This document shows positions 30,001 to 36,000 of a DNA stretch of 51,378 bases, in pieces. The first letter of the stretch is position 1; the number at the start of each line of letters is the position of its first letter. This stretch comes from Candidatus Eiseniibacteriota bacterium. GTDB taxonomy: Bacteria; Eisenbacteria; RBG-16-71-46. The DNA is taken from NCBI GenBank assembly GCA_038231135.1, contig JBBRLX010000032.1, positions 1 through 51,378 of the forward strand. The letters are read 5' to 3'. A program made the position numbers.

Positions 30001-33000
30001 ATCCCGATGTGCACCGGCAAGCCCGCGAAATAGTGGTTCAGCCGCTCGCCGAACGCGCGCCCGCGCGCCTGCATGCGCGGGTTGTAGAACTCCCACTCGT
30101 TGACGATGCCGCGCACCCAGCCCTGGCCCTTGAACGGATACTTGCTGAATGCGACGCCGGCGACGAGCAGAACGGCGACCACGAGCCGCAGCGCCACGCG
30201 CGGCGGGACCAGCCGCTCCACCGCGAGCTCCAGCAGGATGCCAAGGAACGGCGTCACCGGAATCAGCAACCGGGCGAACATGAAGTCGCCGCCCACGCGC
30301 ATCACGTACAGCGTGTAGACGATCGCGAACCCCGCCGCGAGGCCGGCGGCGCGCCGCCAGCGTGTCGCGGCCTCCGGACCCTGCTCCGCGGGCGACCGGA
30401 ACGCCGCGATCGCGCAGGCGACGCCGCCGATCCCGAGCACCCAGTACTTGCGGAAGTACAGGCCGGCGTAGAACGCGCCCTGCTCGAACCACGGCCGGTT
30501 CGCGGACTTGGCGTAGTACGTGTTCGGCAGCAGGTCGCCGTAGTAGGTCAGCTTCCATGCCGCGTAGCCGGCGAGGACGACCGCCAGCGGAGCCGCGAAC
30601 GCCAGCAGATCGCGGCTGCGGCGCGGGGACATCAGCGCCAGCCACACGAACGCGACCCCCGCGAACAGCACCCCGTCCGGGCGCGACAGCGCGACCAGCG
30701 CCAGCACCGTGCCCGCGACCGCCGCGCGCCGCGGCCGGCCCGGCGCCTCGAGCGTCAGCAGGTAGCCCACCAGGGCCAGCAGCGTGAACATCGAGGTTTC
30801 GAGCCCGCTGGTGGCGAAGATCGCGCGATCACGGTGGACGGCCTCGACCATCGCCGCGAGCGGCAGCAGCGAAAGCGCCCCCACCGTCTCCCCGCGATGC
30901 CGGTGCGCCGTGAACCAGGCGAGCAGGCCGAGCGTGGCCGCGTAGCACGCGATGCCCCAGCCCATGGTCCAGCGCACCGGATCGAACCCGAGCGCGATCC
31001 CGGCCGCGCACCACAGCGTCCACAGGAAGTTCGAGTAGCCCTCGACCCGCTCGCCGACGTTGAAAATCAGGCCGTGGCCGCGTACGAGGTTGTCCGCGTA
31101 GCGGAATGATATGAACGCGTCGTCGGACGCCCATGCCAGCCGCAGGGACTGTGCGACGGCCCACAGCACCGCGACCACCGCGATCGCGATGAACGGCCAG
31201 CGGTTGCCGGATGGGCTGGAAGCCGTGGTGGGTTCCGCGGAGGGGGGCACGGTGGCGAGACTAGCGTGAACATTCCTGAACCGCCACCGGGAGGCACGGC
31301 TCACCCACGGCCGGGCGTAGCGGAGCACGCGGTACGCCGAGCGCTGTCGGCAGGTGCCGGCGCCGGGCCGCGATCGTTGTGGGCGGCAGCGTTCGGCTGT
31401 GGCACATTGGAGTGCATGAATGTTCCTCCCGAACGCGCCCCGATCCTCGGCGCACGACTGGCGTCGCTCCTACGCGACGCCGGTACGCGGCCCGGAGCGC
31501 CGGCCGACGGCCCGGGCCGCCTGCTCGTGGTCGACGTCGAGCGCCAGCGCCTGATGCGGGTGGAAGGCGGCCAGGTGATCGCCGAGTACCCGGTGTCGAC
31601 CGCCGAGGCGGGCATCGGGGGCGCCGAGAGCTCGTTCCGCACGCCGCCCGGCTGGCTCCGGATTCATCGCCGGATCGGCGAGGGCCAGCCGGCGGGAATG
31701 GTGTTCGAGAGCCGGCGGCCCACCGGGCGAGTCTGGCGCGGCGAGGCCTACGATGAGGACCTGATCCTGTCGCGGGTGCTGACGCTCGACGGGATGCAGC
31801 CGGGCGTGAACGCGGGCCCGGGGTTCGACTCGATCGAACGCTACATCTATCTCCACGGCACGAATCACGAGTACCGGGTCGGCCGGCCGGCGTCGCACGG
31901 CTGCATCCGGCTGACGAACGACGACATCATCGAGCTGTTCGACCACGTCGCCGAGGGCGACCCGGTGCTGGTCGTCGAGCGGCCGGCGGCGATTCCCGAC
32001 CCCATGGGGCCGGGCCGGTTTCACTACGCGGGGCTCGGCGGCAGCGGGATGAGCGCGCTCGCCCAGTTCCAGGCCATGCGCGGCGGCGTCGCGAGCGGCA
32101 GCGACCGCGCGTTCGATCTGGGCCAGCGCGCCGAGGCGCGGCATCAGCTCGAGAGCCTCGGCATCACGATCCATCCGCAGGACGGCAGCGGCCTCGGCGC
32201 CGATTGCGCGGCGCTCGTGCTATCGACCGCCGTCGAGGACACGGTGCCCGACGTGGTCGCCGCGCGGCGGCTCGGGGTGACGATCGTCCATCGCTCCGAG
32301 CTGCTCGCCTACTTCGTCGACACGCTGCGGTCGATCGCGGTGACGGGGACCAGCGGCAAGTCGAGCGTGGTCGCGATGATCTTCGAGACGCTGCGCGCCG
32401 TGGGCCGCAACCCGTCGGTGATCACCGGCGGCGACCTGGTGAGCCTGCAGCGCCAGGACCTGTGGGGCAACGCGTGGTTCGGCGGGTCGGAGCTGCTGGT
32501 GGTCGAGGCGGACGAGAGCGACGGCTCGGTGGTGCGCTACCAGCCCGCGATCGGCGTGGTGCTGAACCTGCAGCGCGACCACAAGGAGATGGCGCTGGTC
32601 GCGGACATGTTCGCCACGTTCCGCAGCCGCATCCGCGAGGCGCTGGTGGTCGGCGACTCGGCCGAGCTCGAGTTCCTTGGGCGCGCCACAGCCGGCGGTC
32701 CGGAGGCCACCTGGACGTTCGGCTCCACCCCGGACGCGGATGTGCGGGCCGAGGACATCGTGCTCGAGCCCGACGCGAGCCGGTTCGACATCGACGGCGT
32801 GGTGTTCACGCTGCCCGTGCCCGGGGCGCACAACATCGAGAACGCGCTGGCCGCGATCACCGCCTGCCGCGCCTTGGGCGTGGCGCTCGCCGACATGGTG
32901 GCGCCGCTCGCGGGCTACCATGGCGTGGGCCGGCGGTTCCAGAGCCTGGGTGTCGTGCGCGGCATCGAGGTGGTGGACGATTTCGCGCACAACCCCGCGA

Positions 33001-36000
33001 AGCTCGCGGCCGCCATCGCGACGGCCCGCCGCCGCGCGCAGCGGGTGCTCGCGGTCTACCAGCCGCACGGTTACGGTCCCACGCGGTTCCTGCGCCAGGA
33101 TTTCGTGGACACGTTCGCCACGACGCTCGGGCCCGGCGACCGGCTGTGGCTGCTCGAGATCTACTACGCCGGGGGCACGGCGAGGCGTGACCTGTCGTCG
33201 GCCGACATCGTCGCCGACATCACGGCGCGGGGCACGCTCGCCGAGTTCGCGCCGTCGCGCGACTGGCTGCTGCGCCGGCTCGCGGCCGAGGCGAAGCACG
33301 GCGACCTGGTGCTGGTGATGGGCGCGCGCGACCCATCGCTCACGACGTTCGCCCGCGACGTGCTGGCGGCGGTCAAGGCAAAGGCCACGGCGGAGACGCG
33401 CGAGAAGTAAGCGGACGCCCCGCTACGGCCGGTTGCCCGCTCCGCTGCTCTCCGCCGCCCCGTAGCGCTGCTCCACGTAGTCGTCGAGCAGCTTCGCGAA
33501 GTCCTGGGCGATCGTGTCGCCGCGCAGCGTGGTGCGCAGCGCGCCGTCGACGTACACCGGCGCGCGCGGATCCTCGCCGGTGCCGGGCAGCGAGATGCCG
33601 ATGTGGGCGTGCTTGCTCTCGCCGGGTCCGTTCACGACGCAGCCCATCACAGCGACGCGCAGCTCCTCGACGCCGGGATAGATCGGGCGCCACGCCGCGA
33701 TGCGCGACTGGATGTGCGCCGTCACCTGGCCCGCCAGGTCCTGGAAGAACGTGCTGGTGGTGCGTCCGCAGCCCGGGCACGACGTGACCTGCGGCGTGAA
33801 GTGGCGCAGCCCGAGCGACTGCAGTACCTGCTGGCAGGCGCGCACTTCGTCGGCGCGATCGCCGCCCGGCGACGGGGTGAGGCTCACGCGGATCGTGTCG
33901 CCGATGCCTTCGTAGAGGAGGATCGACAGGCCCGCCGTCGATGCGACGATGCCCTTGGTGCCGATCCCGGCCTCGGTGAGCCCGAGGTGCAGCGGATAGT
34001 CGCAGCGGCCGGCGAGGTCGCGATACACGTCGACCAGGTCGCGCACGTCGCTCACCTTGGCCGACAGGATGATGCGGTCGTGGGGCTGGCCGAAGCGCTC
34101 CGCCAGCTCCGCCGAGCGCAACGCGCTCTCGCGCATCGCCTCGAGCACGACCAGGCGGTCGGCGCGCGGCGCGGGCCGGCGCGCGTTCTCGTCCATCAGT
34201 GTCGTCAGCAGCGAACGGTCGAGCGAGCCCCAGTTGACGCCGATCCGCACCGGCTTGCCGTGGGCGACGGCCACTTCGATCATGCGCCGGAAGTTGTCGT
34301 CGTGCTTCTCGCCCACGCCGACGTTGCCGGGATTGATCCGGTACTTGTCGAGCGCCGCGGCGCACGCCGGGTATTCGCCGAGCAGTGTGTGGCCGTTATA
34401 GTGAAAATCTCCGATGATCGGGGCCGTGACGCCGGTGTCGCGGACGCGGCGCACGATCTCGGGCACGGCCGCTGCCGCCTCGCGCGTGTTCACCGTGATG
34501 CGCACCAGCTCGCTGCCGGCCTCGGCGAGCTGGCAGATCTGCTCCGCGGTCGACGCCGGGTCCTGGGTGTCGGTGTTGGTCATCGACTGCACCACCACCG
34601 GGTGGCTGGCGCCGACCGGCACCGCGCCCACGCGGCAGGTGACAGAGGGGCGGCGCGGACCCTGGACCGACGGCTCGATTTGAACGATGGGCATCGACCG
34701 AGGATAGTCACGGGTCAGGGACCGCGCAAACCTGGAGGAGCCGTGACGGACGCACCTTCGAGCTACGTCCACGGCACGTCGCCGGACGAGCAGCGCCGGC
34801 TGACGCGGCTGAACGAGCTGCTGAACCGCTCGTCGCTCGCGGAGCTGGCGCTCGCGGGCGGCGAACGCGTGCTCGACGTGGGCAGCGGGCTGGGCCAGCT
34901 CGCGCGACTCATGGCGCGGGAGGCGGGCGCCGGAGGCCACGTGCTCGGCATCGAGCGCAGCCCGGAGCAGCTCGCCGAGGCCGAACGCCAGGCGCGCGAC
35001 GCGGGCGACTCCGGCCGCGTCGAGTTCCGCCGCGGCGACGCGCTCGATCTGCCGCTGACCGGTCACGAATGGGGCTCGTTCGACGTGGTGCACGGCCGGT
35101 TCATCCTCGAACACGTGTCCGATCCACTCGCCGTCACGCGCGCGATGGTGCGCGCCGCACGGCCGGGCGGCCGCATCGTGCTCGAGGACGACGACCACGA
35201 CGTGCTGCGACTGTGGCCCGAGCCGGACGGGCTCGCGAGCGTATGGAACGCCTATCAACGCACCTACGACCGCGCCGGCAACGATCCCCGCGTCGGCCGC
35301 AAGCTGGTGGCGCTGCTGCACGCCGCCGGCGCCGCGCCACGCAGGAATCGCTGGCTGTTCTTCGGCGCCGCCTCGGGCGATCCCGATTTTCCGGTCTACG
35401 TGGACAACCTCGCCGACGTCCTCGCCGGGGCTCGCGATGCGATCGTCGCGAACGGCGACGCCGGGGCCGCAGCGATCGACGAGACCGTCGCGTCGGTCCG
35501 GGAATGGAAGTCGCGCCCGGACGCGGCGCTGTGGTTCGCGCGCTGCTGGGCGGAGGGCGTGCGGCGCTGACTCTGCGGCGCTGAGCGCGCGGCGACTACC
35601 AGGACCGCGATGTGAGGGTATGGCGCGGTCGCCGGCGGCCGGCGCCAACTTCTACTTCACCCCGCGCACCACGCGCGCCACGCCGGGCAGCCGGACCACC
35701 CCGCCGTCGCGGTGCCGCGCGGCCTCGCGCGCCATGGCGGCGCGGACCCGGGCGCGCGCCCGGACCGGTACGCGATCGTAGAGGGCGCGGGCGCTGCTCG
35801 ACGTCTCGAGTTGTACCGTGACGAACGTTTCGGGGTCGGGGTAGACGAACGGCGCCGCCACTTCGACTTCGCTCACGCTCCGGAATCCGGCCGCACGCAG
35901 CAGCCGCGGCAGCGAGCCAGGGATGGCGAATCGCATCGGGTGCGGCGCCTCGGCGGGCGGGGGCAGGGGAGTCTCGAGCCAGCGCGACATGACGCGCGAC

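Follow-up and report, generated by a model that had tools for sequence, protein, structure and literature searches.

Within the window (the whole 51,378-nucleotide stretch of Candidatus Eiseniibacteriota DNA that was analysed), a gene at 31416..33410 on the forward strand encodes a 664-aa fusion of an ElsL-type L,D-carboxypeptidase domain with a ligase from an unnamed branch of the MurC family, as judged from the ORF, Pfam, and profile matches. The fusion is probably a trim-and-ligate recycler of stem peptides whose ligase, on the predicted activities, would do the job of Mpl without being Mpl. The cytoplasmic ElsL-type domain, with a His147/Cys163 dyad, would remove the D-Ala at the end of imported L-Ala-D-Glu-mDAP-D-Ala, and the ligase half would re-attach the trimmed peptide to UDP-MurNAc, as Mpl would, using an acceptor site that may have been remodelled for peptide instead of free L-Ala. 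Such coupling of trimmer and ligase could keep toxic tetrapeptide out of new precursors. We infer both activities, the substrate, the step order, and the supply route; anatomy, homology, kept and lost residues, and gene pairing are what was observed. The two-step recycling proposed in the initial annotation gains strong comparative support from carboxypeptidase pairing and from a protein in which this ligase is joined to an S66 peptidase, while its claims that the YkuD role is new and that the ligase is Mpl were wrong.

A leaderless ElsL-type domain fused to a Mur ligase

The proposed fusion of YkuD and a three-domain Mur ligase is confirmed, as the 664-aa ORF contains all four Pfam domains. 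On the forward strand, the ElsL-type YkuD domain (aa 35 to 186, 31518..31973; Pfam, 2.6e-23) is followed by Mur_ligase (aa 202 to 301, 32019..32318), the N-domain with predicted UDP-MurNAc binding, by Mur_ligase_M (aa 309 to 483, 32340..32864), the middle domain with predicted ATP/Mg binding, both by Pfam and alignment, and by Mur_ligase_C (aa 506 to 638). The annotated SHGCIR motif lies at aa 160 to 165, its SHGC portion at 31893..31904 including Cys163, with His147 (31854..31856) upstream. YkuD enzymes use a catalytic His/Cys dyad, on which basis His147 is the predicted catalytic His; both residues are invariant in 133/133 aligned fusions. The AlphaFold model of the fusion has a pLDDT of 92.2 and a pTM of 0.81, and together with hydropathy it indicates a charged N-terminal helix at aa 5 to 22 (31428..31481) that is no signal peptide and resembles the leader of homologues.

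The YkuD half is a clear ElsL homologue and a predicted L,D-carboxypeptidase. It is 42% identical to Acinetobacter baumannii ElsL over 157 aa, end to end, with Cys163 aligned to Cys138, which ElsL needs for function (PMC8649774, PMC9239154). The ElsL model NF040925 matches with 131 bits over positions 9 to 160 of 164, the next-best YkuD-type model giving 37 bits. Strict NF040925 membership is defined by at least 270 bits and a stand-alone protein of 105 to 200 aa, and the fusion falls outside on both counts (131 versus 270 bits, with A. baumannii ElsL at 328). No close solved structure was found for this half, the matches spanning only the catalytic motif region. A cytoplasmic task was held to be new for YkuD domains; however, ElsL, an assayed cytoplasmic L,D-carboxypeptidase acting upstream of Mpl (PMC8649774), was already described in 2021 (PMC8649774, PMC9239154), and the YkuD half taken alone is ordinary. 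Like that half, ElsL is a leaderless YkuD protein that stands in for LdcA; unlike it, ElsL is a stand-alone protein of 167 aa that works with a true Mpl, whereas here the domain is coupled to a non-Mpl ligase. Because proteins longer than 200 aa were excluded, such fusions could not show up in the published ElsL orthologue survey.

Location was assessed by a screen of hydropathy and upstream stops rather than by SignalP. Neither the fusion nor the reading frame upstream of it, as far as the preceding stop, contains a hydrophobic leader: the best 12-residue Kyte-Doolittle value is 1.48, compared with 2.95 for an exported control, in agreement with the annotated lack of signal peptide and membrane helix. 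Pfam likewise gives no wall-binding domain in the YkuD half. An upstream start with a signal peptide in the homologues, raised earlier as a caveat, finds little support, with upstream windows of at least 2.0 in only 3/70 untruncated homologous loci and such a window in 1/219 called fusions. In 19 of these 70 loci the YkuD domain has an in-frame stop no more than 45 residues away, one of these (L003) being a frameshift. For the present gene, an alternative GTG start at 31266 (714 aa) was rejected, as it overlaps the divergent gene, adds no hydrophobic segment, and precedes the point, at about residue 5 to 15, from which homologues align.

The fusion is a stand-alone gene between one divergent and one convergent neighbour. 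The former (29517..31328, reverse strand), a membrane protein with a weak DUF2142 match, is common to only 3/80 related loci and is not part of the system; the latter, ispG (GcpE; 33423..34640, reverse strand; Pfam and synteny), recurs in 27/80, mainly in Eisenbacteria, and no functional link is inferred from it. No recycling gene is a conserved neighbour of the fusion, its surroundings tracking lineage (ispG, cobalamin genes). A scan of the locus for sigma-70 promoters and terminators gave no match and was uninformative, and a search of RNA runs listed no RNA holder.

The fusion itself is conserved in Ca. Eisenbacteria, Holophagae, and Methyloceanibacter, with the four-domain order kept in all 119 best homologues listed. 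The 80 GTDB loci comprise 69 fused, 5 split, and 6 ligase-only cases, three of these last ending at a contig edge, and split YkuD forms of about 190 aa are found in relatives. An apparent new N-terminal fusion partner at two loci (L076 and L078) proved to be a long open frame that is the shadow of an overlapping murD. Cultured carriers include Geothrix and Methyloceanibacter.

Relationship of the ligase half to MurC and Mpl

The ligase half was correctly recognized as a second MurC-like gene outside the dcw cluster: the canonical dcw MurC of this genome is separate (C1:145067, after murG) and scores 543 bits on the MurC model TIGR01082, on which the ligase half reaches 277 bits against a cut-off of 335.1, about the same as Escherichia coli Mpl (273 bits). 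Its assignment as Mpl did not hold. On the Mpl model TIGR01081 it scores 92 bits against a cut-off of 388.7, below even true MurCs (182 to 217 bits); other branch members score 106 to 166 bits and E. coli Mpl 914. The Mpl motifs GI(C/G)GTFM, SGP, (S/T)AFFDKRSK, EPRSNT, and SNG (PMC3060825) are absent from the branch alignment, and two Mpl patterns searched in 150 branch cluster representatives matched none (0/150).

Residue roles were assigned by alignment to those listed in PMC3060825. The N-domain has the GxGGxGM loop and GSD as in MurC, and the middle domain conserves the P-loop GTSGKS with K315, plus E364, H389, and N476; with the Gly loop, D230, R507, and D522, these make up the ATP/Mg and UDP residues that are kept, in common with MurC. 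The acceptor site differs. The H. influenzae MurC amino-acid site, Y346, H348, H376, R377, and R380, corresponds here to F523, H525, H551, G552, and P555, whereas all five residues are kept in 17/17 control MurCs. In loop 1 (DDFAHNPAK, 32976..33002, forward strand, like the others), F523 replaces the MurC Tyr and matches the Mpl Phe, while N526 and K529 are branch specific. In loop 2 (QPHGYGP, 33060..33080), the positions of the MurC Arg pair are taken by G552 and P555; the pair is replaced in 15/15 distant branch sequences and in no less than 99.5% of 314 close ones; QPHRxxR occurred in 0/150 further cluster representatives. Loop 3 (GARD, 33321..33332) has a new invariant Arg-Asp (R638-D639) in place of the Gly of MurC and the SNG of Mpl. 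The loops altered in this branch are those proposed to determine the peptide specificity of Mpl (PMC3060825).

On sequence evidence, the C-terminal half, orthologous to neither dcw MurC nor Mpl, is best placed in a third branch within the MurC family; this unnamed branch is large, with 150 or more clusters at the 50% identity level. MurC is its closest match in profile and in predicted fold (TM 0.84 to 0.88, versus 0.67 to Mpl). In the best phylogenetic tree, built from 26 rows and with long outgroup branches, MurC and Mpl join (91/86) with the ligase branch apart (87/85); with the same long outgroup branches, a forced clade of the branch with Mpl gives an AU p of 0.063, a value that does not reject the two as sisters. 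Like Mpl, the ligase lacks the MurC Arg pair, has Phe in the DDF-H loop, and is an L,D-carboxypeptidase-partnered accessory to the canonical dcw MurC, which was found alongside it in 5/5 tested genomes and in 13/15 Alphaproteobacteria. The idea that the branch ligase is the sole MurC of Holophagaceae was discarded, as both genomes carry a canonical MurC. A plasmid search with a distant branch member returned only MurC-level matches.

Pairing of the ligase with L,D-carboxypeptidases

In three genome samples, every ligase-bearing genome (138/138) also has an L,D-carboxypeptidase, of ElsL type in 86, fused or adjacent, and of LdcA/S66 type in 52, where the ligase is unfused. The counts are not independent, since the genomes share ancestry and most of them are incomplete; for fused genes, co-occurrence follows trivially. 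The partner varies by lineage: all 89 ligase genomes of the own phylum have one (53 ElsL-type, fused or adjacent, and 36 S66), as do 34/34 in Holophagae (32 fused, 2 S66) and 15/15 in Alphaproteobacteria (14 S66, 1 fused). Across 131 genomes of the phylum, ElsL-type enzymes occur in 54, S66 in 44, and both together in none; in Holophagae, 4 of the 32 fused genomes also retain an S66 gene. The presence of S66 does not imply the ligase, being found in ligase-free genomes of the phylum (8/42), Holophagae (10/27), and Alphaproteobacteria (16/96). A search for a hidden divergent ligase copy found none in 8 genomes of carboxypeptidase-free families, nor in 2 S66-positive genomes of family f8.

At the level of loci, 67 branch ligases have an S66 neighbour in 35 cases and a YkuD partner in 6, never both, and 26 show no L,D-carboxypeptidase in the fetched flanks, several of which are short; MurC loci have neither neighbour (0/39). 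One protein, P0468, fuses the same branch ligase to an S66 peptidase. Mpl was found in no ligase-bearing genome (0/131 genomes in the phylum, 0/111 in Alphaproteobacteria), and eight Mpl-like genes of Holophagae all fall in the 27 genomes without the branch ligase. The annotated lack of LdcA/S66 likewise stands, none being found in this 93%-complete genome.

Recycling context and competing explanations

Homologues of AnmK, MurQ, and NagZ are encoded in the genome, as previously noted, along with Opp homologues and a YcjG-like Ala-Glu epimerase; MurE carries DNPR, which points to a wall of the mDAP type. In the textbook route AmpD frees the peptide. AmpD (Amidase_2) was not found in this genome and occurs in only 5/89 ligase-bearing genomes of the phylum, and AmpG is represented by a single 49-bit match below the cut-off. 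Because AmpD is missing, we propose that peptide is probably supplied by exported amidases and Opp import. Compared with the E. coli LdcA (Peptidase S66) and Mpl pathway, the putative trim-then-ligate logic is the same, and unfused branch members have an S66 gene as neighbour or as fusion partner; the differences are that other families replace both enzymes here and that AmpD was not found.

The same partners might carry out other chemistry, the ligase preferring L-Ala-D-Glu or tetrapeptide, or the carboxypeptidase mainly proofreading UDP-MurNAc-tetrapeptide after ligation. The acceptor loops, unlike those of both MurC and Mpl, would allow this, as would the epimerase, and step order cannot be read from gene pairing; Mpl itself weakly accepts tetra- and dipeptides (PMC3060825). 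We nevertheless consider it unlikely, since a dipeptide ligase would need no L,D-carboxypeptidase alongside, and the 138/138 pairing best fits a ligase that, left unpaired, would use tetrapeptides, as Mpl has been shown to do (PMC8649774). That the C-terminal half is a backup MurC, a second ligase for L-Ala (or Gly/Ser) with the carboxypeptidase as passenger, is highly unlikely: the whole branch has other residues in place of the two Arg implicated in binding of the incoming amino acid, canonical MurC coexists, and carboxypeptidase neighbours are absent from all 39 MurC loci, even though MurC is the best match in profile, sequence, and fold and an unfused gene directly follows murD in two Holophagaceae.

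YkuD domains are usually exported transpeptidases, and AmpD is missing, which could suggest that this domain is one of them or that the pair acts outside peptidoglycan recycling. We find this scarcely credible, as the domain lacks a leader or any export signal in the screen, is fused to an enzyme using ATP and a UDP-sugar, and matches ElsL far above any transpeptidase model, while the same genome encodes another YkuD protein, which does have a hydrophobic leader.

Beyond the recycler reading, we tentatively entertain a broader proposal: that the branch is a murein peptide ligase family in its own right, the second to evolve and independent of Mpl, and closes the recycling loop in lineages scored Mpl-negative (Ca. 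Eisenbacteria, Holophagae, some Alphaproteobacteria, and a Chlamydiota record). Two carboxypeptidases unrelated to each other would have joined it, through fusion or as neighbours, and in the fusion tetrapeptide might pass between active sites with no need for AmpD. Convergent replacements of the carboxypeptidase are already known (ElsL, LdcV); no convergent replacement of the Mpl ligase, and no description of the fusion or ligase branch, was found in the literature searched, which lay outside most subscription journals and bioRxiv supplements. Two reports read the absence of Mpl and LdcA homologues as a sign that stem peptides are degraded to amino acids, not reused, in many bacteria (PMC13046382, PMC9790009). 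Were the ligase an analogue of Mpl, recycling surveys would have missed its family, whole-peptide recycling might occur in bacteria thought to lack it, and the MurC site would have been rebuilt for peptide by a route other than that of Mpl. HNPxK, QPHGxxP, and GARD would serve as marker motifs for the branch, whose members carry the source names 'MurC' or 'L,D-transpeptidase'.

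The fusion gene, its carboxypeptidase half, and its location

The open reading frame at 31416-33410 (+) encodes a 664-aa protein in which a Pfam YkuD domain (aa 35-186) precedes three Mur ligase domains (aa 202-301, 309-483, and 506-638). The fusion claimed in the initial annotation is genuine and no assembly accident: the same four domains occur in 119/119 of the best homologues listed, and 69 of 80 GTDB loci, chiefly from Candidatus Eisenbacteria and Methyloceanibacter, are fused. Of the remaining 11, five have the two halves in different frames and six have the ligase alone, three of the latter ending at a contig edge. 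A plausible ligase start is overlapped by the YkuD stop in four of the five split loci; frameshifts are also present in two (L003 and L047), so some splits may be errors. With an unfused member as query, the 120 proteins listed comprised 106 fused and 14 unfused forms, with names from Geothrix and Holophaga. The AlphaFold model of the fusion is confident (pLDDT 92.2, pTM 0.81). Only 2/81 sampled genomes of Methyloceanibacter's order have the fusion, and in a quick tree the Methyloceanibacter fusions are nested among Eisenbacteria sequences, which hints at horizontal transfer. A cobalamin biosynthesis cluster adjoins the fusion in Methyloceanibacter loci (L006, L011, L027, and others). In the window, a 603-aa membrane protein whose only match is a weak one to DUF2142 (29517-31328, -) is divergent from the fusion, and the 1144-aa product of 23368-26802 (+) combines an RNase_H_2 domain with a superfamily-1 helicase.

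By sequence, the carboxypeptidase half is ElsL-like and thus of a known kind. It matches the NCBIfam ElsL model over aa 38-188 with 131 bits, below the cut-off of 270, whereas an Acinetobacter baumannii protein with a single Cys, at position 138, passes with 328 bits; the next-best YkuD-type model gives 37 bits. The two proteins are 42% identical over 157 aa, with C163 of the fusion aligned to C138. ElsL is described, in the available text of PMC8649774, as a cytoplasmic carboxypeptidase that converts tetrapeptide to tripeptide and requires C138; LdcA can stand in for it, mpl mutations act as suppressors of its loss in a double-mutant background, and the accessible part of PMC9239154 gives a matching account. 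Because ElsL was already described in this role, a new cytoplasmic job for YkuD, the chief novelty first proposed, falls. The survey in PMC8649774, as far as its text is available, left out proteins >200 aa, and neither Geothrix, Methyloceanibacter, nor Eisenbacteria appears in the accessible list. The literature searched, whose coverage of subscription journals is poor, yielded no description of the fusion or of its unnamed ligase branch. Both extend a known pathway in a new form, the ligase branch being the weightier.

A hydropathy screen (not SignalP) found no hydrophobic leader in the window's fusion up to the preceding in-frame stop. Of 70 untruncated homologous loci, 19 have a stop no more than 45 residues from the YkuD domain (one a frameshift) and 3 have an upstream hydropathy window of at least 2.0, as does 1/219 called fusions. 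As the attached ligase uses ATP and a UDP-sugar, the fusion is very likely cytoplasmic. The product of the genome's only other YkuD gene (L142, C20:40580-41068) is long, bears a hydrophobic leader, and is probably exported as an L,D-transpeptidase.

A ligase branch beside MurC and Mpl

On the MurC model, where the cut-off is 335, the ligase half gets 277 bits, close to Escherichia coli Mpl (273) and far from the genome's canonical dcw-cluster MurC (543). On the Mpl model it reaches 92 bits against a cut-off of 389, below even true MurCs (182 to 217), and Mpl motifs are missing, so its assignment as Mpl is not borne out. By scores and motifs, the half is neither enzyme. Our alignment covered 314 close and 15 distant branch members, 17 MurCs, and 9 Mpl-like proteins; it excludes duplicates, loci of an unpublished genome, and any match of less than 380 to 420 aa. 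The branch keeps the UDP loop, P-loop Lys, Mg ligands, and ATP contacts and is thus predicted to be active as a UDP-MurNAc ligase.

In Haemophilus influenzae MurC, binding of the incoming amino acid is believed to involve Y346, H348, H376, R377, and R380, and three loops are proposed to set peptide specificity in Mpl (PMC3060825, available text). The three altered loops of the branch correspond to these Mpl loops. With the H. influenzae numbering verified, the fusion equivalents of the five residues are F523, H525, H551, G552, and P555, states shared by at least 99.5% of the close and 15/15 of the distant members; 17/17 aligned MurCs keep all five. The two MurC arginines, R377 and R380, presumably grip the alanine carboxylate. 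New invariants specific to the branch are N526, K529, and R638-D639.

A profile search gave 150 representatives (50% clustering), mostly unfused and about 455 aa long, of which 147 carry the acceptor-loop motif G[AS]RD, 145 HNxxK, 108 QPHGxxP, and none QPHRxxR. In a 26-row tree, MurC and Mpl join (91/86) and the branch stands separate (87/85); a constrained clade of branch plus Mpl is not rejected (AU p = 0.063). The predicted fold is closer to MurC than to Mpl. One protein, P0493, joins a branch ligase to a class II lysyl-tRNA-synthetase-like domain, probably EpmA; it may be a read-through of neighbouring genes.

Pairing of the ligase with carboxypeptidases

Across 131 genomes of the window's phylum (completeness at least 85%), 54 carry ElsL-type genes and 44 LdcA-type S66 peptidases, with no genome having both. 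The ligase is present in 89: 53 have a fused or adjacent ElsL-type gene, and the 36 with an unfused ligase (including unpublished G020) all have S66. Among the 42 without ligase, S66 is present in 8, a contig-terminal ElsL fragment in 1, and neither in 33; all 10 of the 42 that were checked have a single MurC-family gene. Of the 12 families lacking ElsL, the same 5 hold ligase and S66. Mpl was not found in the 131.

In Holophagae, 34/61 genomes have the ligase, 32 fused and 2 unfused; S66 is found in both of the latter, in 4/32 fused, and in 10/27 without ligase. All 8 Mpl-like genes fall in these 27, with a stand-alone ElsL-type gene in 5/5 tested. Small-genome Holophagae (L130-L137, L259-L263) have a divergent Mpl-like gene (315 to 341 bits, below cut-off) and a stand-alone ElsL-type gene; S66 was not found there. 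In two Holophagaceae (L076:5041-7913, L078:5683-8555) the unfused ligase lies directly 3' of murD in a broken-up dcw region, with murC elsewhere. Fifteen of 111 Alphaproteobacteria have the ligase (469 to 602 bits versus at most 368 for MurC), 13 being PF02016 positive, 1 having an S66 C-domain neighbour, and 1 the fusion; S66 occurs in 16/96 without ligase (including unpublished G307), and Mpl was not found in the 111.

By motif and score, 110 loci from metagenomes and sampled genomes were classed as 67 branch, 39 MurC (L212 by hand, owing to its murG/ftsW context), and 4 too short. An S66 gene neighbours 35 branch loci (divergent in 28, co-directional and downstream in 6, convergent in 1), 6 have YkuD beside them, and 26 have neither; neither neighbour occurs in the 39 MurC loci. 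In P0468, a single record, a complete LdcA/S66 carboxypeptidase is joined to the C-end of a branch ligase. As related genomes are not independent, p-values overstate the pairing, and its weight lies in repeated partner switches: in family f2, two Holophagae genomes, alphaproteobacterial loci, and P0468. A canonical MurC accompanies the ligase in 5/5 genomes tested (4/4 without unpublished G005). At L118:1910-4052 (G011), same-strand zinc-peptidase-like and D-Ala-D-Ala-ligase-like ATP-grasp genes follow the ligase.

Proposed peptide recycling

Mpl can use tetrapeptide, yielding precursors that are toxic unless an L,D-carboxypeptidase trims it first (PMC8649774, PMC13046382, PMC9790009); Caulobacter and Agrobacterium are without both enzymes, and peptide degradation is inferred (PMC13046382, PMC9790009), all according to the available portions of these reports. 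Since the free-alanine site is lost, a carboxypeptidase is always present, and no Mpl was found alongside, the branch ligase would fit an Mpl analogue. The two-step recycling initially proposed is supported in its pairing of ligase with carboxypeptidase and not in its YkuD novelty or its Mpl assignment; we consider it probable that the fusion trims and ligates. The genome has DNPR-type MurE, AnmK, MurQ, NagZ, an Opp system (35% identical to MppA), three AmiA-like amidases, and a remote AmpG match; AmpD was not found in it or in 84/89 ligase-bearing phylum genomes. The scheme is weakest in how free peptide is supplied; exported amidases and Opp import may provide it. The ligase and S66 genes at L174, L229, and L231 have a further neighbour encoding a lytic transglycosylase (SLT domain), making a three-gene wall-turnover cluster.
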